Source: Chitinophagales bacterium (lineage in GTDB: Bacteria; Bacteroidota; Bacteroidia; Chitinophagales; UBA8649). From it: DNA of 64,000 bases. Location: NCBI GenBank assembly GCA_049890075.1, contig JBMHCE010000001.1, forward strand, positions 22,633-86,632, written 5' to 3'. Shown one piece after another: positions 4,730 to 47,354 of the stretch. The notes under the pieces are model-generated. The model ran no database searches. It was not told the DNA's origin and saw nothing but the letters and a program-made list of their open reading frames with translations. A program made the translations under genes and the position numbers. How positions within the stretch are numbered: the first letter of the stretch is position 1; each line of letters begins with the position of its first letter.

Positions 4730-6496
4730 ATGAAATGGACACGGCATGTAAGCGTATTGTTATTCATGATAGCATCAATTGCTCAAGGGCAGTTCAATGC
4801 CATTGAAGACGATACAGCCGATACAGGTAATGTTTTTGTTTATGAAAATCCGAAGGGATTTGGTAAGGTCCTAGACTTGGTGAATCTTCCTCAAAAAACC
4901 AATCGTTCTGTTTCTGTGCGTGAGGATTTTATTCCATTTGAAGGCATGGAGATTGCTTCTATTGAGGTGATTGTCTTTGATGAAAAGAATCAAGTCATAG
5001 AGGATACAACCCAGTGGGACCCTAATCTCCACTTTGTGTCTAAACCCAATCAGTATCGATGGAATGCTCAACTTGTGAAGCGACAGCTTATGTTCCGTGA
5101 AGGGGACTTGGTAGATGCGCAGTTAATGGTCGATAATGAGGTAGTTCTTCGTCAACGCACTATTTATCGTGATGCAGTTATTCAACTGCATATCATAGAT
5201 AACCATCGTGTGAAAGTTCATGTCCTAGTACAAAACAATCGTCATTGGCAGGTACTTTTTGAAGGAGGTCCTGGGTCAATTCAGCTGGGTTTTGGAGTCT
5301 ATGACATTTTCAGTATTCCTCAAACGATTCAGGTGGCGGCAAAAGGAAATTTCAATAAGTGGAATCCATATTCTGTCTTTCTTCATCATAGTTTGCGAAA
5401 TGTCTTTAAATCAGGATTGGACGTAAAGACGACAGTACTTCATGCGAATACCAGTCAAGAGTTTGAAAGTAAAGTCCAACGGAAGTTTTTAGCTTTCAAC
5501 ACGAAGTGGGCTTTTCAAGGAAAGGTCAGTTTTAACAAGTCCAAGTTAGTTGATCGCAGCTTTGAAGCACCCTATGATTTGGTATCAAACCGTCAAAGCC
5601 TATGGTTGGCGAGGTCATTTAGTGCCCGACACTTGGGTAATGCATTTTCATTATCGCGTTGGACGGTGGGTCTCCGCTATTTACGCAGAGGATACAGTCG
5701 AATTCCTGAAAGTCAGCCCTTTTATGAAAGTGAGCAGTTTGTCGCCTTAGGCGTTGGCTTAGTAAGTAGAGATTTTTATGAAGTGGAAGAGCTAGTCCAA
5801 TTCCGAGCCTATGATTACCTAACCAAGGGTTGGAATATCGCCTTAATCGGAGGGTATGAGATAAGTGAGTACCGAGGAAAGCGTTTGGGCTTGGCATTGA
5901 AAATGAATGCCTCTAAAGTTTATCCAAATTTGGGCCACTTAACGGCAGGTATTCATGCTAACCTCTACCTTAAGTCGGGCGCTTATGATCAAGCGTCTTT
6001 TCGGCTTTTTGACCAATACATTTCCAATCCCATCTCGTTGGGAAAGTTAACGTTTCGACAATTTGTAGCGACATCGGCTACAATGAGTATGAATCGAACA
6101 CCTAATGATTTCTTTAGTTTTAATTCAGTGCAGGGACTGGATGGAAGATTACTTAATTATTCAAGCAGCTTAGTGGCCAATTTCGAATCTGTTTTTTATA
6201 CGCCAATAACTTGGTGGAATTCAAGGGGAAATTTCTACGGATTTGCTGATTTTGCTTTGACGACATCGGGCAGTCCTCGTGATTTTGATAAGAGCATCTT
6301 ACACCACGGATATGGAGTAGGTATTCGTTTTCAGGCACGTAATCTAGGGTTGAATTTTGTCGATATAGCCTTTGGATTTTATCCAACCTATCAGATTGCG
6401 GACGCGCCATTTTTCAATTATCTTTTCTCAACTACTCCTCGCCTTTATGAGGTTGGCAGCTTGAGATCCCCGAGTTATTACAGTCCTGATATCTAG
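4730..6496 (+). CDS. outer-membrane protein, Omp85/BamA-family-like (POTRA-like N-terminal part plus beta-barrel)
   Basis: Signal peptide (MIASIAQGQ). A POTRA-like segment (LMFREGDLVDAQL...VKVHVLVQN) is followed by a C-terminal alternating-hydrophobic barrel ending in GYGVGIRFQ...IAFGFYP. Confidence 0.45.
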   Translation: MKWTRHVSVLLFMIASIAQGQFNAIEDDTADTGNVFVYENPKGFGKVLDLVNLPQKTNRSVSVREDFIPFEGMEIASIEVIVFDEKNQVIEDTTQWDPNLHFVSKPNQYRWNAQLVKRQLMFREGDLVDAQLMVDNEVVLRQRTIYRDAVIQLHIIDNHRVKVHVLVQNNRHWQVLFEGGPGSIQLGFGVYDIFSIPQTIQVAAKGNFNKWNPYSVFLHHSLRNVFKSGLDVKTTVLHANTSQEFESKVQRKFLAFNTKWAFQGKVSFNKSKLVDRSFEAPYDLVSNRQSLWLARSFSARHLGNAFSLSRWTVGLRYLRRGYSRIPESQPFYESEQFVALGVGLVSRDFYEVEELVQFRAYDYLTKGWNIALIGGYEISEYRGKRLGLALKMNASKVYPNLGHLTAGIHANLYLKSGAYDQASFRLFDQYISNPISLGKLTFRQFVATSATMSMNRTPNDFFSFNSVQGLDGRLLNYSSSLVANFESVFYTPITWWNSRGNFYGFADFALTTSGSPRDFDKSILHHGYGVGIRFQARNLGLNFVDIAFGFYPTYQIADAPFFNYLFSTTPRLYEVGSLRSPSYYSPDI

Positions 6497-7776: not shown

Positions 7777-9645
7777 ATGGCAGCAAAGTATACTGAGGAT
7801 AATATTCGGACGCTTGATTGGAAGGAACACATTCGTCTTAGACCTGGAATGTACATTGGAAAATTGGGAAATGGGCAGTCCGCAGATGATGGTGTCTACA
7901 TCTTGATAAAAGAGGTTATTGACAACTCTATTGATGAGTTTATCATGGGCCATGGTAAACGCATTGATATCCAGGTTAACGAGGACAATGTTTCAATTCG
8001 TGACTACGGGCGGGGAATCCCACTAGGAAAAGTAGTGGATGCTGTGTCAAAGATTAATACTGGCGCGAAGTATGATAGTGCAGCTTTTAAAAAGACAGTG
8101 GGTCTAAATGGAGTAGGAACTAAAGCGGTCAACGCGCTCTCCTCTAAGTTTACCGTTGAGTCAGTGCGTGATGGTGAAGCCTTGCAAGCTACTTTTTCCT
8201 GTGGCAATCTCGAAGAAGAAAAGCGGATTAAAAGCGATAAGGAAAATGGAACGTCCGTTCATTTTATTCCAGATGCTACCATTTTTAAAAACTACAGTTT
8301 TCGCACTGAATTTGTAGAAGATCAAATTCGTCACTATGCCTATCTCAATAAAGGACTCTCTCTTTATCTAAATGGCCAACGCTTCGTATCAAAAAATGGA
8401 CTTCTTGATCTTTTACAAGATAAAACGGAGGCAGAGCAGATCCGATACCCCATCATGCATTTTGAAGGAAATGACATTGAGGTTGCCTTAACCCACGATA
8501 ATCACTATGGAGAGTCGTACTACTCTTTTGTCAATGGTCAATATACTGTACAAGGGGGCACCCACGAGGCAGCGCTAAAGCAGGCAATTGTAAAAACAGT
8601 TCGTGATTTCTACAACAAACAGTTTGATCCTCAAGATATACGAGCATCCATTGTAGCGGCAATTTCCATTCGCATGCAAGACCCTGTTTTTGAGAGTCAA
8701 ACCAAAACGAGGCTTGGATCGACCCAAATCGAAGAGGGAGGAAGCTCTATGTATTCTTTTGTCCTCGACTTTTTGAAGAAAGCTTTAGATGATTTCTTAC
8801 ATAAGAATCCTGATTCTGCTGAAGCGCTTTTAAAGCGAATAACACAAAGTGAAAGGGAACGCAAGGATATGGCTGGTGTTAAAAAGCTTGCTAAAGAGCG
8901 GGCTAAAAAGGCCAACCTTCACAATAAGAAACTGAGGGATTGCAAATTCCATTATAACGATAAAGGCAAAAGCATTGAGGACGAGGATAAACAACGCACA
9001 ACAGTCTTTATCACCGAGGGAGACTCAGCAAGTGGCTCTCTTACCAAAGCAAGAAACCCCCACTATCAGGCAGTCTTTAGTTTGCGGGGTAAACCGCTAA
9101 ACTGTTATGGATTAAAGAAGAAGATAGTCTATGAAAATGAGGAGTTTAATCTCCTACAACATGCCTTAAATATTGAAGAGGGATTGGAGGGACTTCGCTT
9201 TAACAATGTAGTGATTGCCACAGATGCAGACGTCGATGGTATGCATATCCGACTATTGCTCTTGACCTTCTTTTTACAGTTTTTCCCTGATTTGGTGCGA
9301 GAGGGCCACATAAAAATTCTTGAAACTCCACTCTTTCGAGTGCGCGATAAGCAAACCACGATGTATTGCTACAATGAAACAGAAAAGCAGGCTGCCATTA
9401 AGAAGTTAAAAGGAAAGCCAGAGATCACTCGATTTAAAGGGTTGGGGGAGATTTCGCCTAATGAATTTGAAGATTTTATTGGAGATGGTATTCGCTTACG
9501 CCCAGTGCGCATAGCACAGGATCAATCGATAGATGAGATTTTAACGTATTACATGGGGAAAAATACTCCCAGTCGTCAGGAGTTCATTATTGAAAATTTG
9601 AGGGTCGAGCTGGACGAAACAGAGCGCTCTGCATTAGCTTCCTAG
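7777..9645 (+). CDS. parE: DNA topoisomerase IV subunit B (type IIA topoisomerase B subunit)
   Basis: 622 aa. GHKL ATPase N-terminus ([24 protein letters not shown]), Toprim EGDSA, and [12 protein letters not shown]. The length fits the bacteroidetal ParE class rather than GyrB. Confidence 0.8.
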
Positions 9646-10619
9646 TGCTGTTCACAAGAGGGTAGTGGATGATTTAAATCCTCTAGATCGGATGGATAGA
9701 CGGGTATTGCTTGGTTTTCAAATTTGGGACTTCCAGCGTTTATCCAACAGGTAAGCCATGCGCTTGCCACTGCATGCACTGATTGTCTGAAGCGCTCCTC
9801 AATATGGCCTTTACATAGCTTAGAATACTCTTGGCAAAATGCCACGCTATAGGTTCTATGAGCTTTACCTTGTCTATATCGGTAACTGTATTTGGGTATG
9901 GTTGGGTCCTCGGAGACACAGTACTCAGCAGAAAAAACAGCAAAGAGCAAATTATGACTATCAAGGATGATAGACCATATCTTTTCTAAGGGATTCTTCC
10001 AAAAATCGAGACTTTCGTCAATCCAACAATCATATTGTACAAATTCCCATTCGGGAATAGCACTCTCCCAAAGCCCATGGATACCATGTTGCTCTGAACG
10101 CTGGCCGTTATAGTTTTGAGTCGTATGAAGGGGTACATGAGCATCTGATATGTAATGACCAAGTTCTCCAGAGATTCGGAGTATGTCTTCCACATGACCA
10201 TCTTGCATTGCTTGGGTTAGTCGATGCATCATAAAAAGACAATGCCACGGTAGAATACCATCTTGTCCAAAACTATGCGGCTCATTTGTGAACTGACTAT
10301 ATCGCTGCTTAGCTCCCTCGTAGTCTAACCCTACCAATCCAGGATCTAAGGCAGTATAAGTGTCTAAGTCGATGAAGTGTCGAGGTCCTTCTTTTGGATC
10401 GACGTATCGTCGATTGTCGGGTTTTGTAGCATATATTTTCAGGGTATATTCATTGTTCTTATATAGGGTCATAAGTTCAGGTGGCAGTAAATAAATAGCA
10501 TGGCTATTGATCTTTTTATGCATGAAAAATCCCCATGCCTTACCTTCGTAGGGCAGTGTGCTGAGGACAAAGAATACTGTAAAGAATAACTCGAACTTTT
10601 TAAAAAAGAATGATTTCAT
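9642..10619 (-). CDS. zinc-dependent phospholipase C / S1-P1 nuclease superfamily protein (secreted)
   Basis: Signal peptide, then [14 protein letters not shown] and [13 protein letters not shown] metal-ligand motifs. Start taken at MKSFFFKK; the longer 10730 start lacks a signal peptide. Confidence 0.55.
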
Positions 10620-11794
10620 ACCCCAAACATTCGATTTGTTTTGGCCTTGCCCTGCGTTGTTTAGTATTGCACATTTCACTGTTTGTAGGTATGGGAGTAT
10701 TGTCCAATGCACAGGCCCAAACGGCATCAAATCAACTAGAATTTGGTGTTTCTAGCGGACGAATTATTCCTCATAATGCAAAGTTTAAGCCAGTAATCGA
10801 TGGTCCAAGCTTTCTGTACCAAATCTCCTGGCTTCGTCAGAAAGAAGATAGCCTTGCTTGGAGAAGAGCAGCAAACTTTCCTTCTGTTGGCTTGACTTTG
10901 GTTGTGGCCGATTGCGCCCCCAATGATATTTTCGGTTATGCTGTGGGGGTGTCCCCGTTTATTGATTTGGCGTTAAGACAGCGGCCTAAGTCTCGACTGG
11001 ATCTCCGATTAGGAACAGGGTTAGCTTACTTTACTAAGTGCTATGACCCAGTAACGAATCCTGATAACAATGTTATTGGTTCGCACCTTAATACCATAGT
11101 CCACTTTGGTATTCACCATCAATGGATGGTAAGTTCTCGACTTTCTTTGGGCCAAGGAATTGATGTCTTTCATTTTTCTAACGCCCGGACGACGCTACCC
11201 AACTCAGGGATAAATGTAGCCACGGCTAAACTTTTTGTACGGTATGCTTTAGCCAATACAACTCTACGGGATACCCATGCTTCTTCTCGTCATAACCAAG
11301 ATGGTATTGTTGAATTACGACCTCACTCCCTGTCGCTTCGCTATGGCCTTGGACTTAACCATCGAATCGTTGGAGGTCCAGTCCGACTGATTCATTCTAG
11401 TATTGTACAATACATGTATTCTACAGGACCGCTGCATTCCATAGGATTTGGCCTTAAACAGAGTTGGGATATGGGTGAATTAGAGGCGTTAAATTTTTTA
11501 AATCAAGGAGAGGATTTTAAGCTTGGGGCAGCGAGTAATGCAAGCGTTTTTATAGCAGATGCTTGGCGATTTGGAGCTACAGGTTTAGAGTTAGCCGTGG
11601 GTGCCTATCTATACGATCGATCTTTGACCTATTCTCGTCTATGGTTTAAAATAGGCATTCAAGGTTTACTTGGTGGAAGAAAGCGCCTAATGCAAGGCGT
11701 ATTGGGGTGTCATATGAAAAGCCATTATGCGGTGGCGGAGTACGTCGAATTACAATCAGGTATTCAGTTTAACTATGGTAAAAAAAGACGATAG
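10610..11794 (+). CDS. PagL-like lipid A deacylase / acyloxyacyl hydrolase family outer-membrane protein
   Basis: Signal peptide ending SNAQAQ. Beta-barrel-like alternating pattern and an HFSN(A) motif resembling the PagL His-x-Ser-Asn catalytic motif. Confidence 0.45.
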   Translation: MISYPKHSICFGLALRCLVLHISLFVGMGVLSNAQAQTASNQLEFGVSSGRIIPHNAKFKPVIDGPSFLYQISWLRQKEDSLAWRRAANFPSVGLTLVVADCAPNDIFGYAVGVSPFIDLALRQRPKSRLDLRLGTGLAYFTKCYDPVTNPDNNVIGSHLNTIVHFGIHHQWMVSSRLSLGQGIDVFHFSNARTTLPNSGINVATAKLFVRYALANTTLRDTHASSRHNQDGIVELRPHSLSLRYGLGLNHRIVGGPVRLIHSSIVQYMYSTGPLHSIGFGLKQSWDMGELEALNFLNQGEDFKLGAASNASVFIADAWRFGATGLELAVGAYLYDRSLTYSRLWFKIGIQGLLGGRKRLMQGVLGCHMKSHYAVAEYVELQSGIQFNYGKKRR

Positions 11795-12714
11795 ACTTCC
11801 CCTTCTTGATTTCCTAGGTAAAAAGTATGGGTCGACTCTGTATGTTGAACCGCACTCCATTGAGCGGTAGGGATTTCCATTGTAATCCATGTATTTCCAA
11901 AGTCACGCGTCCAGAGGCACAAACCGTTATCGCCTACGGCTAGGCAATTACCATCATCACTACATGACATAGACCGCATACCGGTTATTCCTTTGGGCAT
12001 GCCGCCACTTATTCTTGTAAACGAATTGCCATTATATATATATCGTCGACCACTAAACCCGAGGATTAAACATTGCTCTTCACGACATTCGATATCTATA
12101 AATACATCGCCTTCCATTGGAATTGCTTCCCATGTTTGACCTAAATCCGAGCTCAATAGACCACCTCCAGCCCCTACAGCGATCAAATGTCCTGAGGAAG
12201 CTTCCCATCCAAGGTCATACAGCGCAAGGTTTTGTTTTGTGCTATCCCATACAAACCACAGCGAGTCGGCTACGTGACAGCTACCACGATTATATCCTTC
12301 TCCAGCTACAGCAACAAAGCGCTTATTAGAAAACCAGTGCGCTGCCTGCAAAGGAGCATAGCTTGGATCATTGGCACCTTCCCATGTCATCCCTTGATCA
12401 AATGACACGTAGCGTAATCCGTCATAGCCGATGACTAATAGGGAATCGGTATCTCGCTGAATGAATTGTTCTAAGCCTTTACCTGTGGTAAGCAAAGTGT
12501 CAAAGGTTACTCCATCTTCGGATTGTAATACAAATCCCGAGGCAAAGGTGTTTCCTCCTATCACCCATAGCGAATTGTTGGATGGTGATTGCTCGATATC
12601 TCGTATAGGCTCACCAACGGACAGTATGTTGTCGAGAGAAAGAGGAAGGATACGTTCAGTTTGACAAGCGCTCAGTAGGCACAGGCTTGCGATAAGGAGC
12701 TTAGGCCATTTCAT
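11773..12714 (-). CDS. BNR-repeat / Ycf48-like beta-propeller lipoprotein
   Basis: Lipobox (LLSAC) after the internal Met MKWPKL. Three SxDxGxTW-type BNR motifs: SFDQGMTW, SSDLGQTW, TRDFGNTW. Confidence 0.6.
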   Translation of the reverse strand: MKWPKLLIASLCLLSACQTERILPLSLDNILSVGEPIRDIEQSPSNNSLWVIGGNTFASGFVLQSEDGVTFDTLLTTGKGLEQFIQRDTDSLLVIGYDGLRYVSFDQGMTWEGANDPSYAPLQAAHWFSNKRFVAVAGEGYNRGSCHVADSLWFVWDSTKQNLALYDLGWEASSGHLIAVGAGGGLLSSDLGQTWEAIPMEGDVFIDIECREEQCLILGFSGRRYIYNGNSFTRISGGMPKGITGMRSMSCSDDGNCLAVGDNGLCLWTRDFGNTWITMEIPTAQWSAVQHTESTHTFYLGNQEGEVYRLFLP

Positions 12715-13891
12715 GGCAAACTTCAAGTATGGTATCGGTTGCAAAGTCGATTTCCTCATTACTTATAGGCAGGGGTGGGGCAATTCTCAAGGCATTTGGT
12801 GCAAACAAAAACCAATCGGTTAACAAACCCTTGTCAAGGCAGCGTTTGATTACTTCTTGATTAAAGGCAAAGGATTCAAAATGAATAGCCATCCAAAGGC
12901 CTTTTCGTGATATACATCCAAGCGGTAGCTCACTTAAGTTGTCCTCAAACCGTTGCCCTTTTGCTTCTAACGAAGCCAATAATGGTCCATGATTGAGCAG
13001 GTCAAATGCCGCATGACCTGCAGCACAGCTTACAGGGTGCCCTCCAAAGGTGGTGATATGGCCTAGAATAGGTTTTGTTTGTAGGGCTTCAAATAAATGT
13101 TTATCCCCAATAAATGCTCCGAGTGGCATTCCTCCACCTAGTGCTTTAGCCAATAAAAGAATGTCAGGACAAATGCCATGTTCATCAATGGTAAAACGAT
13201 GGCCTGTTCGCCCAAAGCCGGTCTGAATTTCATCAAAAATCAGCAGACATCCCCACTTATCACATGCCGCGCGTAATGCAGGAAGAAAGTCTGGAGGGGG
13301 CACTCGAATACCACTTTCAGCCTGGACAGGTTCAACAATTACTGCCGCGGTTGACCCATTGATTGCAGCAACCCCTTCTTCTGCTCCATAGTCATAGATA
13401 TAATGACCTGGAATCAAGGGTCTGTAGTTTTGCTTAAAGTGCTCATCGCCCATAGCAGAAAGCGCTCCTGCCGTTGAGCCGTGGTAGGAATTTTTGAAGG
13501 ATATGATTTCTGTTCTTCCCGTAGCGCGTTTGGCAAGTTTTAAAGCACCTTCGGTGGCTTCAGTACCCGAACTGACGTAGTATACGGTGTTTAAGTTGGA
13601 CGGTAAGTGGTCGGTGAGAGCCTTGGCATAAGCAGTCTGGCTGTTTTGAATTAGTTCTCCATAAACTAAAACATGCATGTGCTTCGCTGCTTGATCCTGG
13701 ACGGCCTTAACAATATTGGGATGAGAATGACCCATATTGCTCACAGAAATCCCTGAAATCAAGTCCAGGTATGATTTGTTATTTGGATCAAAAAGATAGC
13801 ATCCTCTTGCTCGTTCAATTTCAAGAGCTAACGGCGCATCATTGGTAAACGCGATATGGTTTTGAAAAAGCTGTCGAGCACTTATTCCCAT
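12701..13891 (-). CDS. class-III (acetylornithine/GABA-type) pyridoxal-phosphate aminotransferase
   Basis: 396 aa with SGTEATEGALKLA, IFDEIQTGFGRTG and a PLP-Lys region LLLAKALGGG. Confidence 0.85.
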   Translation of the reverse strand: MGISARQLFQNHIAFTNDAPLALEIERARGCYLFDPNNKSYLDLISGISVSNMGHSHPNIVKAVQDQAAKHMHVLVYGELIQNSQTAYAKALTDHLPSNLNTVYYVSSGTEATEGALKLAKRATGRTEIISFKNSYHGSTAGALSAMGDEHFKQNYRPLIPGHYIYDYGAEEGVAAINGSTAAVIVEPVQAESGIRVPPPDFLPALRAACDKWGCLLIFDEIQTGFGRTGHRFTIDEHGICPDILLLAKALGGGMPLGAFIGDKHLFEALQTKPILGHITTFGGHPVSCAAGHAAFDLLNHGPLLASLEAKGQRFEDNLSELPLGCISRKGLWMAIHFESFAFNQEVIKRCLDKGLLTDWFLFAPNALRIAPPLPISNEEIDFATDTILEVCHEMA

Positions 13892-13903: not shown

Positions 13904-14152
13904 TTACTCTACAGCAATTTGACCTTCTTGAATCATATTGCCTGTTACCTGGTCGATGGCGCGATAAAAGTAAATACCTGGCGTCCATGCGCTTACATTA
14001 ACACCTACAGTTGATGTTCTCGGATTAAAGGCCTGTTGAAGCTTTTGACTTCCTTTGCTATCATAAACTTCAATAGCTACGGCATCGAAGTCAGAATCCA
14101 TTAAGCCGAAAAAGAGTTCTTCATGGCTTGGATTAGGATACACTAAAAACTG
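13904..14152 (-). other. T9SS type-A C-terminal sorting domain-like segment of the 564-aa protein
   Basis: The last ~80 aa (NQFLVYPNPSHEELFFGL...VEVYDSKG...GIYFYRAIDQ...) follow the Por_Secre_tail pattern. Confidence 0.55.
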
Positions 14153-15598
14153 ATTGTTTGGTTGTTCAATAGGTTCGCCAATCGAGGTTGGATTACCCAT
14201 GTCAAGGCCACTGGTATCCTTTAGAAAATAGGTAGTGTACAGCTGCATTTCGTCGTCTGATGTAAGGCCAAACTCAACATCTTCGGGGCCGTCATTAATC
14301 CAAGTTGTTCGTGTGAGAAGAAAATCCCCATCGGTCATTGGTAGGAAGTTGTCAAAAAATCGAAAAGGTAGATGGGCATAATCGTAGTTTTCTACAGAAC
14401 AGCCGGGAATACCATTGGCACAACCTGCATCATATTGCTGATAGGTTTCAGTATCTAAAAAGGGCGAAGGCGTAACGTACATGTCAAAGTCCTCTCCATA
14501 TTTATGGGTGTGCCCTACCATTGCCCAGAAGAAGATCTCATCGTCACTACCTGCTCCTGCCGTGCTTAATAAAGTAGGGAGGGTCACCGGAAAGTCTATA
14601 ACAGTTGCCTGACCATCATTGGGAATATCGATATTTAAATTGAAGGCCATTGAAGAGTACATAATTTGCGTAGCAGTACCTGACGGCTGGGTTTCAAAAT
14701 TGATGTAGGCCTCACACTTCATTGGTTGATTGAGGTCGTAGTTGATGTAGTGGCTATTTAAATCAAACACCATGTCTTGCCAAAACTCAAAAGCTGTTCC
14801 GTCAGGTAATGTCAATGCATTGGTATATTGCTCGGTGGCTACAACGGAGAAACTTTCATTATCAATCCCTCTTAACCCGGCAGGAGTCGATTGTCCAAAG
14901 GTTGGATTGCCGTTAAAGTCAATGTATTTGTAGGTTATAAAGTGATGAGAATAGTCACCCATAGTTGTCGACACCTCAGTGACTTCAACATCCTCCGGCA
15001 GGTTCGTTTCATATTTTAAGAAATGCTCACGCTCGCCACCTGCTTCGAGGAAAAATGGTCCGAAATGAACTTGGAAACCATTTGCTGGCGGTGCTGGCGG
15101 ATTAGGAACACTTTCAATACCACCGTTTTGATAAAAATCATCAATCAATGTGGTATTCACCACATCTCCACCAAGAGGAGAACCGTAAAGAATCCACTGA
15201 CGGACTAACTCAATATCCTCGTCAGTCATACTTCCCCCGATGGGCATATCCGATCCTTCGGAGGCATCAAGAACTACATCGGGCGATAGACCATTATTGA
15301 TTTTTCGAAATAAGTAACTTCTGTAAGGGTCTCCGGGATAAATTAACTTATGCCCTTTGCTTGCTGCTTCTGAATTGTTTGGGTTGACATCATATAGATT
15401 ATTGTAGACGTCCTGAATCCTTGCATTCAAGTTCCCTCCGCTTCCCTCTAGATCAAGGCCACCTGCCTGGCTTGCACTTGAGTGACAATAGCCATTAGCA
15501 CAGTTGGTCTGTAAAACATCATAGACCTTTCTCGCTGTGCTTTGAGCACTTGTGTGAAAGGCTACAACCAGAATTAGAGATGAGAGAAGTAGACGCAT
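13904..15598 (-). CDS. secreted PHM/DBH-like copper monooxygenase-fold protein with an N-terminal PSCyt1-like CX4CH motif and a T9SS C-terminal sorting domain
   Basis: Signal peptide. C33-ANGY-C38-H39 is followed by GGLDL, PGDPYRSYL, DMP and WILYG. Putative copper ligands are H218-H219, H283, H363-T-H365-KYG and DDEM451QLYTTYF. The C-terminus (FLVYPNPS...IYFYRAID) is CTD-like. Confidence 0.6.
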   Translation of the reverse strand: MRLLLSSLILVVAFHTSAQSTARKVYDVLQTNCANGYCHSSASQAGGLDLEGSGGNLNARIQDVYNNLYDVNPNNSEAASKGHKLIYPGDPYRSYLFRKINNGLSPDVVLDASEGSDMPIGGSMTDEDIELVRQWILYGSPLGGDVVNTTLIDDFYQNGGIESVPNPPAPPANGFQVHFGPFFLEAGGEREHFLKYETNLPEDVEVTEVSTTMGDYSHHFITYKYIDFNGNPTFGQSTPAGLRGIDNESFSVVATEQYTNALTLPDGTAFEFWQDMVFDLNSHYINYDLNQPMKCEAYINFETQPSGTATQIMYSSMAFNLNIDIPNDGQATVIDFPVTLPTLLSTAGAGSDDEIFFWAMVGHTHKYGEDFDMYVTPSPFLDTETYQQYDAGCANGIPGCSVENYDYAHLPFRFFDNFLPMTDGDFLLTRTTWINDGPEDVEFGLTSDDEMQLYTTYFLKDTSGLDMGNPTSIGEPIEQPNNQFLVYPNPSHEELFFGLMDSDFDAVAIEVYDSKGSQKLQQAFNPRTSTVGVNVSAWTPGIYFYRAIDQVTGNMIQEGQIAVE

Positions 15599-15708: not shown

Positions 15709-16860
15709 ATGGGTATAATTCATCCTTCCTTGTTTTTTATCAATTTTGCTGTATTCGGTAAAATTCTGTGGCTCAACATGATTAAATATCCGTCAGTTCG
15801 GCGTTGGGTATTTTGTATGATCCTCGTGCCCGTAATGCTGATTTATTGGTCTTTACTCATCGTGGGAAGGTTGCTTGACGAAATACTGTTTTTCCCCTAC
15901 CGTTGGCATGAGGTTAAATCACCTGTATATATTATAAGCAATCCGAGAAGTGGTACAACATTCTTGCATCGTCTGTTTAACCTTGATGATAAGCGTTTTT
16001 GTACTCCACTTCTTTATCACACACTCTTTCCTTGTATTTTTTGGATTCGTTTGTTTGATACAATTGCATGGGCCGATTCAAAAATTGATGGCCCGTTGCA
16101 TGCCCTTTTAGGTTGGATTGAACGTAAGGTTTTTAAGGGATGGAAGGATGTACATCCTATGGGATTCACGATGCCTGAAGAGGATGAAAATCTTTTTGTG
16201 TCCACCATGATAAGTCCAGCACTTATTCTTGCATGTCCTTTTGTAAAAGACCTTCCGGAATTGCGTTTTGTAGATACTATGCCTAAGCGCACGCAGCAAC
16301 GTTTGAGAATTTTTTATAAAAACTCGCTACAGCGCATGCACTACGCAATGGATCCTTCCAAGACCTTGCTTGTGAAAAATGTATTTAATACGGGGCGTTT
16401 GAAATGGCTAATGGAGACCTTTCCCGAGGCTAGGCTGATTTATCCAGTGCGTCATCCGTACAAATTTGTACCCTCTGTCGTAAGTATGTTTACCGGACCT
16501 TGGAGGCTTCATAGTCCTGACATACTTGATGATAGCGAAGAGTGCCGGGATTTTGCCCAATTGGCTATTGATTATTGTGCTTACATGCAACATATTAGGC
16601 CTTCATTTGCTAATGACCGTTTTTTTGTCATTGATTATAAGGTTATCAAAGAAAATCCATACCAGGTCATTATGGATTTGTACAATCAAATGGGATTAGA
16701 TTTGCCGCCGGAGGTCGAAACTGCCCTTCAAGAAATATCCAAAGGGAATAAAACCTATACAAGTAAACATCACTATTCCTTAGCGCAATACGGGATGTCC
16801 AAAAGCTATGTATACGAACAACTGACAGAAGTTTTTAATGAGTTTGAATTTGAAGCTTGA
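15709..16860 (+). CDS. membrane-anchored sulfotransferase family protein
   Basis: N-terminal hydrophobic helices, then a PAPS 5'-PSB motif (NPRSGTTFLHRL) and a 3'-PB-like motif (YPVRHPYKFVPSVVS). The start is uncertain; the alternative is Met 24. Confidence 0.7.
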   Translation: MGIIHPSLFFINFAVFGKILWLNMIKYPSVRRWVFCMILVPVMLIYWSLLIVGRLLDEILFFPYRWHEVKSPVYIISNPRSGTTFLHRLFNLDDKRFCTPLLYHTLFPCIFWIRLFDTIAWADSKIDGPLHALLGWIERKVFKGWKDVHPMGFTMPEEDENLFVSTMISPALILACPFVKDLPELRFVDTMPKRTQQRLRIFYKNSLQRMHYAMDPSKTLLVKNVFNTGRLKWLMETFPEARLIYPVRHPYKFVPSVVSMFTGPWRLHSPDILDDSEECRDFAQLAIDYCAYMQHIRPSFANDRFFVIDYKVIKENPYQVIMDLYNQMGLDLPPEVETALQEISKGNKTYTSKHHYSLAQYGMSKSYVYEQLTEVFNEFEFEA

Positions 16861-26316: not shown

Positions 26317-27822
26317 ATGCGAAAAATAGGATATCTAACCCTGGTGTTTTCATTGGCTACCCTTAATCTATGGAGTCAATTGTATTCTCGTCAAATGCTT
26401 CAAATGACCGATTTAAATCCCCACTTTAGAAGTGCACGGTATAGCGGAGTGAGTGGAGCATTCTCCGCCATTGGGCCTGATTTGTCGAGTATCACAGACA
26501 ACCCTGCAGGAATAGCGCTAATCAAATCTTCGCAGTTTAGTTTTACTGCAGGGGGCGTTGTTCATCAAAGTAGTTCCTCCTATATGAATTCAACCGCTGT
26601 TGCTGATCGAATAGGTGTTCCTACCTTCAATTCAATAGGCTTTGGGGTGACAACCGAAGGGAGTGACCGGTGGTCTGTTGGACTGACGCTTAATCGACTA
26701 GCCGATTACAATCAATCGTTGTCGTTTTCTGGATTCAATCCTATGAATAGTATGGCGGCTTCGCATGCAGTTACGGCAACAGCGATTACCAACTCCCTTG
26801 GATTGCCTCCTGATGGGCTTAGCGATAGTAATGCCCCCTTTGAGGTGACCAATGCGTATCTCGGCTGGCTTGTAAACTGGGATTCAACAAGTAACAGCTA
26901 CCAAGCTCCGGCTTCCGATTCAGTATATCAAAATGGACGTTATGAAAGCCGTGGAGGATTTTACGAGGCGGCCATGAGCCTGGGCAGAAGTTATCTTGGC
27001 GATCGAGTCCATGTCGGATTTTCTGTCGGCATTCCGTTTATGAACCACAAGAACCGCTTAATCTTTAATGAAGAAGAAGGGTCTTCAACCAACCGTGGAT
27101 TTTACCGAAGCGAACAGCGAACCAGAGTACAAAATGAAGGCTTTGGAATTAACGCGAAGTTTGGAATTGTCTTAAAGCCTGTTAATGGTGTTCGCTTGGC
27201 GGCGGCAGTCCACTCGCCAACAAGAATGTTTATTACAGAAAACTATAATGCGAAGATTACCTCCTATGTTGATACGCCTGTTACCCCTACTAGTGGGTTT
27301 TGCCTTCCCTGTGAGGAGGCTTCTCCTCGAGGCGTATATGAATATTCCATGCGCATGCCATGGAGGGCTAATGTTGGCTTAGGTTTTGTGATTGACCGTG
27401 TAGGGTTCTTATCGATGCAATATGAATGGACAGGACTTAATGAGGCACGATATTTCTTTGGGAATGGATTCGGTGAATTGGGTCGGGAGATTAATAACGA
27501 CATCGATGAAAGGTACCGCAATACCCATAATGTACGCTTGGGGGTTGAACTTGCTCCAGGTCCTTTGAGGTTCCGAGCAGGGGCGCATGCCACGTCATCT
27601 CCTTTAGCTGGTGAAGAACTCAACGGCTTGTTTTGGAAGCATGGCATCTCAGGAGGATTTGGTGTGGTAGGAAGGAATATGGCATTGGATTTTTCCTACG
27701 TCCAAAATCGACAAAATCAACAGGATATGCCTTACGACAACTTCGGGGAGGCATCACCTCAAGTCCTTTCAGAACTTACACGACATTATGTAGGGGTTAC
27801 GCTTAGCATGCGCTTACAATAG
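26317..27822 (+). CDS. FadL/PorV-like outer-membrane beta-barrel protein
   Basis: Signal peptide. The N-terminal motif SARYSGVSGAFSAIGPDLSSITDNPAGIA follows the (G)GA..A...D.S....NPAG(L)A pattern of FadL/PorV-type barrels. Confidence 0.5.
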   Translation: MRKIGYLTLVFSLATLNLWSQLYSRQMLQMTDLNPHFRSARYSGVSGAFSAIGPDLSSITDNPAGIALIKSSQFSFTAGGVVHQSSSSYMNSTAVADRIGVPTFNSIGFGVTTEGSDRWSVGLTLNRLADYNQSLSFSGFNPMNSMAASHAVTATAITNSLGLPPDGLSDSNAPFEVTNAYLGWLVNWDSTSNSYQAPASDSVYQNGRYESRGGFYEAAMSLGRSYLGDRVHVGFSVGIPFMNHKNRLIFNEEEGSSTNRGFYRSEQRTRVQNEGFGINAKFGIVLKPVNGVRLAAAVHSPTRMFITENYNAKITSYVDTPVTPTSGFCLPCEEASPRGVYEYSMRMPWRANVGLGFVIDRVGFLSMQYEWTGLNEARYFFGNGFGELGREINNDIDERYRNTHNVRLGVELAPGPLRFRAGAHATSSPLAGEELNGLFWKHGISGGFGVVGRNMALDFSYVQNRQNQQDMPYDNFGEASPQVLSELTRHYVGVTLSMRLQ

Positions 27823-44129: not shown

Positions 44130-47100
44130 TTAAAAGGTTTGATTAAATCCAAAGACTAATCGAGGATAGATGTTTTGATTTCCAGTACCTGGATCGGAGA
44201 CCCAAAAAGGACAATCTATGCGAAAGGTAAACGGTTTTAGATTGTAGAGTTTAAAGAAGCGTTTCCATGTCAGGGCCAGACCTAATCCAGCATCAGCGTA
44301 GATTGCAGACCAGTTTCTTCCACGAGCCGTTGGATCACTATTGATTAGTCCCGCATCGGCAAAAAGGTATACGTTGGCCTCGTAGTTTCTTCGAAGTTTA
44401 CTGTTTTTTATGTTAATCAAACGATCAAAACTTAACTCGGACGAAACACTTAACCCCGACCGTCCCGAAACTAAGCTCTGTCCCGATTCATCCGTTACTA
44501 ATCGACCTGCATAACCTCTAAGATTCATGCCTCCAGCATAATGAAAGCCTGTAGTGGAGTTGTTTTGGTAAGGCCCGATTTCTTGTTGAGGATAGAATCC
44601 AACGCTTCGGACAAACTTGTTATCCATCATGGATTCGGGATTCCCACCTGCTAGGTATACGGCGCTTTCAGGCGGTGTTTTTCCAAAACCGAAGCGACTG
44701 TAAAGACGATTTTTCCAATCAAATTTTCCGATTTTCATATGATCAGTAAACGTCGCTTCGAGGTATTGGTAATTCCAGTCAGGCGTCATAGAAACCCTTC
44801 CTGATAGTTTGAGTTGGCTTTTGCCCGGCCGTGCCTTTCGGAAATCTTCGGAGGTATACTGCAGGTTAAGTCCTGCATTCCAGGCGCCACTGACCCACCA
44901 AGCACCTTGCTCTGGGTTTTGAAGGTAGGATAGGTCTTCTTCATTGGGCCTAATCATAGCAAAGCCTTCTAACCTGAGCGTTCCTTTTCCATGAAGCTCC
45001 TTTTGAATGCCAAGGCGTTGATCAATAAGCCCATCTAGGTATTTTGACTTGACATAGGCGGTTGCGCCGTCGATAAATTCATAAACTGGCGTTGCGTAAG
45101 AAAGTCTGTAGTTAATCCCTTGGTATGCTCTTCTGCTATTTAAGAATGCAGGGCCCCCTTGATAGGAACGCTGCAGGGTTGGCCAAGAAAGATTACCCCA
45201 GATTGTGAAATCAAAAAAGCGTTTTCGTCGCATATAGTTTCCTTCTACATGGAGTCCAAGCTTAAGTCCATCTACACCGTTCCACCATAGGTCGGGACGC
45301 CATTCCATAATGTAATGTTTACGGCTAGGGAAGTTATAGACGTGGCTGTTAAAGCGCCAAATAGTGTTTCTTTTTAGCCTGTTGTTAAAGGCATTGATGT
45401 CGGCCAAGCGGTTTGTTGTATCAATCGTTGCATTGGCGAGTTTATCCTCAAGTTCTACGGTAAAACTGTAGGTAGGGTGAAGCTTATCCCACCCGGTCCA
45501 CTTAGGAAGTATTGTGGCTTCTGTGGACTTTTCAAAATATTGGTTAGGAATGTGAAAATCATAGGTCGTACCCGATTGGTCCTTTAGTTGAAGATCTATC
45601 GGCATTTGCATCCTTCCATGACGCTCTAGGGTAATGGTGTAGGTGTTTTCGGCTGTTTCTTTTTTCGAAGAAATACTGTAGTCGATGCTTTTGTTGGTTT
45701 CAATCCACTGATCAAAGAACCAATTCAAATCAACGCCCGTGAAGTCAATGATGGAGTGTCGGAAGTCCTCGGGATAAGGGTGAGCATAGGACCACTGGTC
45801 AAAATAGTGTTGCATTGCCGCCAAAAACAAGGAATCGCCTAAAACATATTGAAGATTATAAAGCATCACCGCAGTCTTATAATAGACATGACCATATCCC
45901 CCGCCATGACGAAGTGCTCCATCAAATCCATCACTATGCGTATTCAATTGAGGGTCTTGTCCGAGGGTAGCGTCCATCATATATCCGATATATACCTCGC
46001 CTTCACGGGCCTCTACTGGCTCCTTAAATTTTCGGAGGTATGGTGTTGATGGTGTATTCGTTACATAGTTAACACCATCGATGGCTTCAAGGCCCCAAGC
46101 CGTTAGAAATTGGGTGAATCCTTCATCCATCATGGCCCGATAGGTCTCGTTATTGGCAACCATTCCATAGAACCAGTTATGCCCCACTTCGTGAACTAGA
46201 AGATCGCGATATCCAGGATCTTTGTCACCATCCAAGGTGAGCATTGGATACTCCATGCCATCGCGAGCATCGGCTACGATCATCTTTGGGTAACCGTACA
46301 TACCAATGTCCTCGGAAAATACCTGAATAATGGCTGCGGTGTATTCCGCTGCATTTTGCCATCGACTACTGTGTGGCTCTTGACAGAGGGCATAGGTTTT
46401 TACTCCTTGCCACTCCGATTCTCCTATTCGATAGTGAGGGTTTGCGGTGAAGGCAAAATCATGCACATTTTCCGCATAGTAATGCCACTGCTTGCGCTCG
46501 CCTTCAACATAGGGAGTAATGGTCGATGGCGCTTCGCCCCAAGGCTTGTCTTTGAAATTTTCAATATCAAGTTTTGCTCTGAGTTCTGCTGGTAATACTT
46601 CATCGCGGTTTTGTAAAAAACCGGTTGCTCCAACTACGTAGTTGGAAGGAAAATCCAAGGTAACATCAAAGGTTCCGAAGTCTCCATAAAATTCTCGACT
46701 GAGGTGCTGGTCAACATTCCATCCAAACTTCTCGTCATATACAGCAATTCTTGGATACCAATGAGCTCCGTTGAATTGAATGGCTCCGTAAGAGTTAAAG
46801 AGCTTCATTCGGCGACGACTGCTTCCAAAACCATAGAATGTTTGAAAATCAAAATGTAGGGTAATTCCATCATTGGGAAGCAATGGCTCATTGAGGTGCA
46901 CAAATAATATGGTATTATCCATTGAAGTATCTACAACATCTCCGTTAACTCGCATATTGCTTACAACCGTTCCGAGACCCATTTCCTCATAATCGCTGTA
47001 GATTGGATCGACGCCATTATTCTTTTGAAGATTGTCATAATATGCTCCTGGTTGAAAAGCGTTTTGGTAAAGATGAAATGCCACTGTGCTCAGAGTATCT

Positions 47101-47354
47101 GGTGAATTATTGGTGTACACTAATTCAGTTGTGGCCTCAATGAAATACCGTTTTTCGTCAATCCTCGCCGTCATGGTGTAATGCACATCCTGTTGCCAAT
47201 ACCCTGGTTTTATCGATTTGTTTTTCCAATAGTTAGGGTTTGATTCACTAGCAAATGAGTTCGGCCCAGCATTTGGATTATAATCCTGGCCAACGGAATA
47301 CTCAGTGGCGAAAAATGTAAAGGCGAGAAGGAAGTATTTATGTAAACAGCGCAT
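44130..47354 (-). CDS. M1-family zinc metallopeptidase fused to a C-terminal Omp85-type outer-membrane beta-barrel
   Basis: Signal peptide. GMEYP exopeptidase-type motif at aa 366-370, and H388-EVGH-x18-E411 (codons checked at 46179..46193). The C-terminal ~400 aa have a GGMNLRGY loop-6-like motif and a terminal ...LVFGFNQTF beta-signal. Confidence 0.7.
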   Translation of the reverse strand: MRCLHKYFLLAFTFFATEYSVGQDYNPNAGPNSFASESNPNYWKNKSIKPGYWQQDVHYTMTARIDEKRYFIEATTELVYTNNSPDTLSTVAFHLYQNAFQPGAYYDNLQKNNGVDPIYSDYEEMGLGTVVSNMRVNGDVVDTSMDNTILFVHLNEPLLPNDGITLHFDFQTFYGFGSSRRRMKLFNSYGAIQFNGAHWYPRIAVYDEKFGWNVDQHLSREFYGDFGTFDVTLDFPSNYVVGATGFLQNRDEVLPAELRAKLDIENFKDKPWGEAPSTITPYVEGERKQWHYYAENVHDFAFTANPHYRIGESEWQGVKTYALCQEPHSSRWQNAAEYTAAIIQVFSEDIGMYGYPKMIVADARDGMEYPMLTLDGDKDPGYRDLLVHEVGHNWFYGMVANNETYRAMMDEGFTQFLTAWGLEAIDGVNYVTNTPSTPYLRKFKEPVEAREGEVYIGYMMDATLGQDPQLNTHSDGFDGALRHGGGYGHVYYKTAVMLYNLQYVLGDSLFLAAMQHYFDQWSYAHPYPEDFRHSIIDFTGVDLNWFFDQWIETNKSIDYSISSKKETAENTYTITLERHGRMQMPIDLQLKDQSGTTYDFHIPNQYFEKSTEATILPKWTGWDKLHPTYSFTVELEDKLANATIDTTNRLADINAFNNRLKRNTIWRFNSHVYNFPSRKHYIMEWRPDLWWNGVDGLKLGLHVEGNYMRRKRFFDFTIWGNLSWPTLQRSYQGGPAFLNSRRAYQGINYRLSYATPVYEFIDGATAYVKSKYLDGLIDQRLGIQKELHGKGTLRLEGFAMIRPNEEDLSYLQNPEQGAWWVSGAWNAGLNLQYTSEDFRKARPGKSQLKLSGRVSMTPDWNYQYLEATFTDHMKIGKFDWKNRLYSRFGFGKTPPESAVYLAGGNPESMMDNKFVRSVGFYPQQEIGPYQNNSTTGFHYAGGMNLRGYAGRLVTDESGQSLVSGRSGLSVSSELSFDRLINIKNSKLRRNYEANVYLFADAGLINSDPTARGRNWSAIYADAGLGLALTWKRFFKLYNLKPFTFRIDCPFWVSDPGTGNQNIYPRLVFGFNQTF

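Follow-up and report, generated by a model that had tools for sequence, protein, structure and literature searches.

Introduction

The animal monooxygenases PHM (peptidylglycine alpha-hydroxylating monooxygenase) and DBH (dopamine beta-hydroxylase) depend on ascorbate to re-reduce their coppers, and the ascorbate that serves DBH is in turn recycled by cytochrome b561. To our knowledge, the non-coupled two-copper chemistry of these proteins is hardly known outside the neuroendocrine enzymes of eukaryotes. Haem domains also deliver electrons to extracellular copper oxygenases, as in the pairs cellobiose dehydrogenase/LPMO and cytochrome b561/DOMON. We describe here a gene from a 64,000-nucleotide stretch of the genome of a Chitinophagales bacterium (contig JBMHCE010000001.1, positions 22,633 to 86,632; hereafter, the window) whose product combines a cytochrome c domain of the PSCyt1 type, a copper core with the PHM/DBH fold and a C-terminal sorting domain of the type IX secretion system (T9SS). 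We consider it fairly probable that this protein is a self-contained extracellular two-copper monooxygenase, re-reduced via its own fused haem.

Gene model and domain organization

The gene is on the minus strand of the window, and its product divides into the following parts (positions are those of the window):

13904..15598, minus strand: whole gene, encoding the 564-amino acid secreted cytochrome c/two-copper PHM-like/T9SS-tail protein; from the open reading frame (ORF) listing, with an ATG start and a stop codon at 13904-13906
15542..15598, minus strand: Sec signal peptide, residues 1-19 (MRLLLSSLILVVAFHTSAQ), read directly off the sequence
15104..15541, minus strand: mono-haem c-type cytochrome domain of the PSCyt1 type, residues ~20-165, from domain matches and the structural model
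15482..15502, minus strand: haem c attachment motif C33-ANGY-C38-H39 (CX4CH), codons recomputed (C33, 15500-15502; C38, 15485-15487; H39, 15482-15484)
15242..15247, minus strand: M118-P119, the likely loop of the sixth (axial) haem ligand (M118, 15245-15247), from alignment with cytochrome c6
14675..15085, minus strand: CuH-type beta-sandwich subdomain, residues ~172-308, with ligands H218 (14945-14947), H219 (14942-14944) and H283 (14750-14752), from Foldseek, hhalign and conservation
14204..14674, minus strand: CuM-type beta-sandwich subdomain, residues ~309-465, with ligands H363 (14510-14512), H365 (14504-14506) and M451 (14246-14248), from the PDB profile alignment, hhalign and conservation
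14372..14422, minus strand: family-specific insert C393-ANGIPG-C400 ... D406-Y407-x-H409, invariant in the 50-sequence alignment and without a PHM counterpart
13907..14152, minus strand: T9SS type A C-terminal sorting domain, residues ~483-564, from PF18962, TIGR04183 and PDB matches to T9SS C-terminal domains, including 8glj_D

An initial annotation, made by reading the sequence, had already described this ORF, its signal peptide and the individual residues and codons of interest. All of these assignments were correct on recomputation, and the motifs it quoted (GGLDL, PGDPYRSYL, DMP, WILYG, GHTHKYG and DDEMQLYTTYF) were all found in the translation. The gene model is sound, because the public data contain an orthologue of equal length (P0001, 564 amino acids) that is 92% identical to the focal protein; the same holds for locus L007, from a Chitinophagales metagenome-assembled genome (MAG).

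A word-indexed search retrieved at least 499 relatives. Conservation was assessed in two alignments, one of 50 relatives (mean column identity 40%) and one of 342 distinct sequences, 317 of which cover the haem-motif region. A hydrophobic N-terminus with a terminal AQ is common to the members of the 50-sequence alignment. Searched alone against Pfam and NCBIfam, the focal protein had the T9SS tail as its only significant match (PF18962, 34.6 bits against a cut-off of 27; TIGR04183, 30.2 against 23), in agreement with the type A domain proposed initially, and a single-sequence phmmer search against the PDB returned the T9SS C-terminal domain only. PF18962 was matched by all 50 relatives. The linker ahead of the tail (residues 469-482) is the sole disordered stretch of the AlphaFold2 model (pLDDT <50). 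With both a sorting domain and an N-terminal Sec signal, the protein is predicted to be secreted as a T9SS type A cargo.

Fold and ligands of the copper core

The AlphaFold2 model of the focal protein was built on the family alignment (pLDDT 88.3, pTM 0.76) and compared to the PDB with Foldseek. Matches 1-31 were only to rat PHM or human DBH, at E values of 1.4e-12 to 1.4e-8, and the modelled fold is the PHM/DBH double beta-sandwich that the initial annotation had set as a check. The PHM structure 3mll led the matches (E = 1.4e-12), with 1phm at E = 2.7e-12 (target-normalised TM-score 0.65) and human DBH (4zel_A) at E = 1.8e-11. PHM chains matched with target-normalised TM-scores of ~0.57-0.65 over ~330 alignment columns each, a length that implies coverage of the two beta-sandwich subdomains. 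PNGase-type proteins come next; their matches start at E = 3.9e-6 and are about a million-fold weaker than those to PHM/DBH. The root-mean-square deviation of the Foldseek alignments also varied (5.5 Å for 6ALV against ~9 Å for most PHM structures), and we considered whether this spread could separate open from closed conformers. We rejected this reading because 6ALV is described as essentially wild-type-like (PMC6123673); the spread follows alignment length.

PHM binds copper via H107, H108 and H172 at the CuH site and via H242, H244 and M314 at the CuM site (PMC6123673). When we searched a core-only family profile against PDB sequences, the ten top-scoring matches were all PHM, at a marginal E of ~0.04. 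The profile alignment places ‘sHTHkyGk’ of the family on ‘HTHHLGK’ of PHM (H242/H244) and ‘GlTSdDEMm’ on ‘GGTSSDEMC’ (M314). An hhalign comparison of the core profile with the rat PHM catalytic core (230 columns, E = 0.0029, probability 10.6%) agrees with this CuM pairing and places ‘ySHHf’ on ‘tvHHm’ (H107/H108) and ‘LNSHY’ on ‘LQVHY’ (H172). Only two segments of the rat PHM sequence used in the hhalign run are confirmed by the PDB alignment output. H283 is exactly 64 residues past H219, as had been counted in the initial annotation. In these alignments, the six putative ligands of the focal protein map one-to-one on the CuH (H107/H108/H172) and CuM (H242/H244/M314) sites of PHM.

The residues so aligned are nearly invariant in the family. 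Among the 342 relatives, the CuH ligands H218, H219 and H283 are kept in 339, 340 and 341 sequences, respectively, and the CuM ligands H363, H365 and M451 in 339-340. The C...CH residues of the haem motif are kept in 314-315 of the 317 relatives that cover the region. The 50-sequence alignment has 53 invariant query positions out of 564, and these include C38, H39, H218, H219, H283, H363, H365 and M451. As judged from the aligned sequences, this pattern of ligand and haem residues is far beyond chance, and it bears out the histidines and methionine initially listed as copper ligands. N281, which falls on Q170 of PHM, is also kept (327 of 342 relatives).

The Pfam models of the Cu2 monooxygenase domains, named as a check in the initial annotation, gave a different outcome: the focal protein had no match to PF01082 or PF03712, even at E values up to 10. 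PF03712 was matched weakly by 16 of the 50 relatives (best E, 9.7e-5), and PF01082 was not among the 25 commonest families found in them. A missing match of this kind formally counts as a refutation of the assignment, yet the evidence from fold and ligands supports overruling it. The case for kinship with PHM is thus a supported one that rests on the modelled fold, the exact correspondence of the aligned ligands and their conservation.

Substrate side of the core

Three residues of PHM (R240, N316 and Y318) are its substrate anchors for the carboxylate and backbone of the peptide. The family has S, M, T or V at the position aligned to R240 (361), V, L or I at the position aligned to N316 (453), and I, V, F or Y at the position aligned to Y318 (455). 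Because the peptidyl-glycine residues of PHM are not conserved, the substrate is probably not a glycine-extended peptide nor the protein a peptide-amidating enzyme. Peptidyl-glycine, one of the candidate substrates put forward initially, is therefore unlikely, the three aligned positions being variable and mostly hydrophobic. Consistent with this, the PAL lyase domain was found neither in the focal protein (Pfam) nor among the Pfam-annotated neighbours in the window and in four homologue loci.

The CuM-type subdomain also contains an insert with a Cys pair (C393-x6-C400) followed by the motif D406-Y407-x-H409-x-P411, which has no PHM counterpart and lies in a region only loosely aligned to PHM. 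Of the 342 relatives, ~90 have a gap at the Cys pair, and 318 retain H409. C393 and C400 probably form a disulphide, and the insert may serve as a substrate-pocket determinant or contribute an extra metal ligand. Other residues invariant in the family are N286, N300, N435 and E450. To judge from their conservation, these residues and the insert presumably shape a pocket different from that of PHM.

N-terminal haem domain

The module that follows the signal peptide had been recognized in the initial annotation as a c-type cytochrome with the layout of PSCyt1. This assignment was borne out by domain matches across the family, by profile matches in the PDB and by fold matches. Cytochrome_CBB3 was matched by 29 of the 50 relatives and PSCyt1 (PF07635) by 20; the focal protein itself scored 17.9 bits against the PSCyt1 cut-off of 22 and is thus sub-threshold. 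A profile of residues 20-168 matched 27 PDB entries, all of them c-type cytochromes. The best of these was FoxE (5mab, E = 0.011), an Fe(II)-oxidising cytochrome that has the PGDPxxS motif in common with the focal domain. Cytochromes c6 came next, with ‘CasCH’ placed on the haem motif and ‘aMP’ (M118-P119) on the Met-Pro of cytochrome c6 (AMP), the Met of which is the axial haem ligand in that cytochrome. The isolated domain was modelled with a pLDDT of 94; its best fold matches, all of them weak (E ≥0.16), were to the alpha chain of hydrazine synthase, to cytochrome c6A and to the cd1 nitrite reductase NirS. On the strength of these profile and domain matches, we assign the N-terminal domain as a predicted mono-haem c-type cytochrome of the PSCyt1 kind.

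The CX4CH spacing that the initial annotation had singled out is indeed present in the focal protein, but it is one of three family spacings (CX2CH in 195 relatives, CX3CH in 23 and CX4CH in 91), of which CX2CH is the commonest; CX5-6CH was found in 3 relatives. We read CX4CH, from the alignment, as a subclade variant of the canonical haem site. A length change inside a covalent haem motif within one orthologous family is unusual and raises the question of which Bacteroidota maturation system tolerates the indel.

Position 118 varies too: it is a Met in 216 relatives, a Cys in 61 and another residue in ~40. Cys118 nearly always occurs with CX2CH (57 of 61 sequences). This distribution suggests that the Cys118 members form a subclade with a His/Cys-ligated haem of low potential.

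Family size and architecture

PHM/DBH-fold enzymes had been regarded in the initial annotation as overwhelmingly eukaryotic, yet the family is not rare in bacteria. Scanning with a profile of the catalytic core (HMMER) recovered 1243 clusters of 50% identity at E ≤1e-3, 558 at ≤1e-10 and 240 at ≤1e-30. When one genome of each GTDB species was scanned by sequence pattern, the family was found in at least 253 species, the best 80 of which were nearly all MAGs of Chitinophagales, Saprospiraceae or Lewinellaceae. Homologues are named in public data only as ‘hypothetical protein’ or ‘T9SS type A sorting domain-containing protein’.

The fusion of cytochrome and copper core is constant across the family: 311 of the 312 full-length relatives have an N-terminal domain of the PSCyt1 type. 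The exception (P0135, 518 amino acids, the representative of a 50%-identity cluster) carries at the same position a Cytochrom_C domain of the canonical type, which scores 34.3 bits with PF00034 (cut-off, 21.3), and keeps the copper core (5e-111 against the family profile) and the T9SS tail. Although this is a single case, the replacement of the module by a functional analogue at the same place is good evidence that its role is haem-based electron transfer. Short members of 390-490 amino acids were considered as a cytochrome-less form of the family, and this idea was rejected because all of them begin inside the cytochrome domain and are thus gene calls truncated at the N-terminus.

Longer relatives have PKD or Ig domains inserted between the core and the tail, an arrangement common in T9SS cargo. 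Tandem paralogues also occur: in 3 of the 84 homologous loci whose neighbourhoods were clustered, a second copy of the family is adjacent on the same strand (+1 or -1), giving 87 family genes in the 84 loci.

Proposed mechanism and alternative explanations

These features are compatible with the following sequence of events. The Sec signal peptide would take the protein to the periplasm, where one haem would be covalently joined to the CX4CH motif, with H39 and probably M118 as axial ligands, and two coppers would load into the PHM/DBH-type core. The type A domain would then direct the folded holoprotein through the T9SS to the cell surface or the medium. There, the core would follow the chemistry of PHM and DBH, that of a non-coupled two-copper monooxygenase. 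CuM (H363, H365 and M451) would bind O2 and break a substrate C-H bond by removing its hydrogen atom, and CuH (H218, H219 and H283) would give the second electron across the interdomain cleft. The fused haem c would take the place of ascorbate in re-reducing CuH and would be fed by an external reductant or by an electron carrier at the cell surface. In Saprospiraceae, genes for numerous predicted extracellular multihaem cytochromes have been reported (PMC11495043), and these cytochromes are one possible candidate for this electron source.

Several observations weigh against this proposal. A haem domain located outside the outer membrane would have to draw its electrons from a source outside the cell. 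In about 19% of the relatives, a Cys replaces the putative axial Met, which would give the haem a very different potential. As to the core, the focal protein is without a match to PF01082 or PF03712, and its link to PHM at the sequence level is marginal in both the profile search and the hhalign comparison. We also entertain, tentatively, a broader possibility: that the family represents a new class of extracellular oxidative enzymes in which a PHM-fold core is wired by a covalent haem to an extracellular electron-transfer network or to environmental reductants and hydroxylates an external C-H bond in a polymer or small molecule (glycan, lipid or alkyl chain, amine or humic material). Such enzymes would play an ecological role like that of LPMOs with a fold and metal site unrelated to theirs.

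The main rival explanation keeps the same cofactors and reverses the flow of electrons. The core would oxidise a substrate, or reduce O2 or nitrite, with the haem c relaying electrons to or from an extracellular or outer-membrane chain, and the protein would not be a C-H hydroxylase. An extracellular Fe(II)/Mn(II) oxidase, a phenol oxidase and a terminal oxidase are examples of what it could be. The choice of FoxE as the best PDB sequence match of the N-terminal domain points in this direction, as do the PHM structures with bound nitrite in the PDB (3mib and 3mlk) and the 84 loci, which conserve no partner gene and give no clue to the substrate. The many extracellular multihaem cytochromes predicted in Saprospiraceae (PMC11495043) would fit a reversed flow as well. 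However, the similarity to FoxE is marginal and reflects the generic PSCyt1-type fold. Furthermore, the set of three His plus two His and a Met, near-invariant in this family, has in all characterised cases belonged to non-coupled monooxygenases. We therefore regard reversed electron flow, and the oxidases that exemplify it, as unlikely. We give less credence still to a scenario in which the N-terminal domain of the CX4CH subclade carries no covalent haem, or is a sensor or structural module, and the copper core runs on a diffusible reductant. The sub-threshold PSCyt1 score of the focal protein, its non-canonical motif and the weak matches to cytochrome folds (best E = 0.16) would agree with such a loss. 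Against it, the CX2CH, CX3CH and CX4CH motifs fall on one and the same site of the alignment, where the Cys and His residues are invariant; CxxxxCH is itself an accepted haem motif, as in family GSu_C4xC__C2xCH; the Met-Pro of cytochrome c6 is matched; and one relative (P0135) substitutes a bona fide Cytochrom_C domain for the module.

Two further explanations depart from the proposal on the side of the core, and we hold both to be very improbable. A true bacterial peptidylglycine alpha-hydroxylating monooxygenase (EC 1.14.17.3) that amidates secreted peptides would account for PHM structures being the top fold matches and for the CuM motifs in common with PHM (HTHxxG and DEM). Yet DBH scores as well as PHM in Foldseek, the family varies at the counterparts of R240, N316 and Y318, where most residues are hydrophobic, and no gene for a PAL-like lyase or a precursor peptide is conserved nearby in the window or in the 84 loci. 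The protein could instead act at the surface without any catalytic role, for example as an adhesin for glycans or peptides or as a scavenger of copper, and simply keep a PHM/PNGase F-type fold. Many T9SS cargos are adhesins, and Bacteroides proteins of the PNGase F type (9vla, 3ks7 and 4qhb) are among the weaker fold matches. These PNGase-type matches are, however, some six orders of magnitude weaker than those to PHM, and the near-perfect retention of six metal ligands and a haem site in relatives with identities to the query down to ~40% indicates selection on redox cofactors. An extracellular two-copper monooxygenase that draws its electrons from the fused haem thus remains our preferred explanation.

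Genomic context

The window is ordinary chromosome: it contains thyA, priA, glmS, a gyrB/parE-like gene and genes for PEPCK, glycerol kinase and a subunit of ATP synthase. Its GC content varies little (0.41-0.46), the cumulative GC skew climbs over most of the 64 kb, and a tRNA/tmRNA scan of the whole window found none. These characteristics are consistent with core chromosome on a single replichore rather than an island. Two genes flank the one described here:

12701..13891, minus strand: ArgD-like class III aminotransferase, 12 bp after the focal stop codon (Pfam Aminotran_3, 1.8e-93)
15709-16860, plus strand: Sulfotransfer_3 protein (PF13469, 1.8e-22), divergent from the focal gene across a 110-bp intergenic region

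When we clustered the neighbours in the 84 loci, no neighbour family was present in more than 12 of them. With no conserved neighbour, the enzyme seems to need no dedicated partner, as fits a self-contained design of donor plus catalyst. In 9 of the 84 loci, the aminotransferase directly follows the family gene (+1, same strand, gap of 7-20 bp), and the family proteins of these loci share 41-92% identity with the query. Its matches to the acetylornithine transaminase families of NCBIfam were all below the cut-offs. No terminator-like site was found between the two genes, in a promoter and terminator scan that gave chance-level results with a consensus other than the Bacteroidota one. The aminotransferase is probably co-transcribed with the focal gene. 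It is linked in a subset of genomes only, looks cytoplasmic from its sequence and is probably not a functional partner; we read the linkage as clade-level synteny or co-transcription. Between the aminotransferase ORF and the following one (11773-12759) there is an overlap of 59 bp, and the start of the latter has probably been called too far upstream.

A sulfotransferase cluster (median length, 385 amino acids) is present in 9 of the 84 loci, at -1 in 8 of them, and a sulfotransferase is also found beside the homologue in locus L006. The sulfotransferase of the window had no match in NCBIfam. As a functional partner it was likewise set aside, in favour of lineage-level synteny or co-transcription. 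PorP/SprF and GldC-like genes adjoin the homologues in loci L001 and L003.

Elsewhere in the window, three ORFs of 588, 501 and 362 amino acids (4730-6496, plus strand; 26317-27822, plus strand; and 9642-10730, minus strand) had no Pfam match at the thresholds used. The last of these overlaps an ORF with a PagL domain on the opposite strand (10610-11794) by ~120 bp. A protein of 1074 amino acids (44130-47354, minus strand) has a partial Peptidase_M1 match only (residues 384-550, 8.6e-13) and is otherwise mostly unannotated.

Comparison with known systems

Like the core of rat PHM (1PHM and 3MLL), the focal protein has two beta-sandwich subdomains, a CuH site made of an HH pair and a third His at the same 64-residue spacing, and a CuM site with H-x-H and the Met of a DEM motif. 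It differs from rat PHM in being only ~14% identical, in having no match to PF01082 or PF03712 and in lacking R240, N316 and Y318 as conserved positions. The Cys-Cys/DYxH insert, the cytochrome c fusion and the T9SS tail also set it apart, as does its occurrence as a bacterial and, by prediction, extracellular protein without a PAL partner. The resemblance to human DBH (4ZEL) extends from the core fold to the presence of an extra N-terminal domain ahead of the copper core. This domain is a predicted covalent haem c domain in the focal protein and a DOMON domain in DBH, and the focal protein is without the dimerisation domain of DBH.

PSCyt1 domains occur elsewhere in fusions with domains of the PSD1/DUF1553 type. 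The N-terminal domain of the family shares with PSCyt1 (PF07635) and with FoxE of Rhodobacter ferrooxidans (5MAB) the CXXCH, G-L-x-L and PGxPxxSxL motifs and, putatively, the M-P loop and a C-terminal helix. Unlike these, it varies in spacing (CX2-4CH), has a single predicted haem and is fused to a copper enzyme. The haem domain of the hydrazine synthase alpha subunit (5C2V, chain A) is the best fold match of the N-terminal domain (probability 0.90, query-normalised TM-score 0.50, 143 columns), albeit a weak one (E = 0.16) at 19% identity and from a wholly different enzyme context. As a functional analogy only, the arrangement may be likened to the transfer of electrons from the cytochrome of cellobiose dehydrogenase to LPMOs and from cytochrome b561/DOMON to DBH, in which a haem module feeds an extracellular copper oxygenase. 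The folds are unrelated, those pairs use a b-type haem instead of a covalent c-type haem, and donor and copper enzyme are here part of one polypeptide.

The electron route to CuH and the crossing of the ~11 Å gap to CuM are debated for PHM and DBH (see PMC6123673 and PMC9064607). If our proposal is true, the focal protein would offer a single-polypeptide model with a spectroscopically visible haem donor, so that the entry of electrons could be started without ascorbate and monitored by optical means. It would also show non-coupled two-copper monooxygenase chemistry to be common in environmental Bacteroidota. The Saprospiraceae and Chitinophagales are major polymer degraders in activated sludge and aquatic systems, and their toolkit would gain a candidate oxidative exoenzyme. 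Within the literature searched, no bacterial fusion of cytochrome c to a PHM-type core and no characterised bacterial homologue of PHM/DBH were described. The catalytic kind is one already known. What appears to be new is the architecture, in which one chain joins a non-coupled two-copper core to a covalent haem c donor and a T9SS export signal, together with the apparent shift in substrate away from peptidyl-glycine and the size of the unannotated bacterial family.

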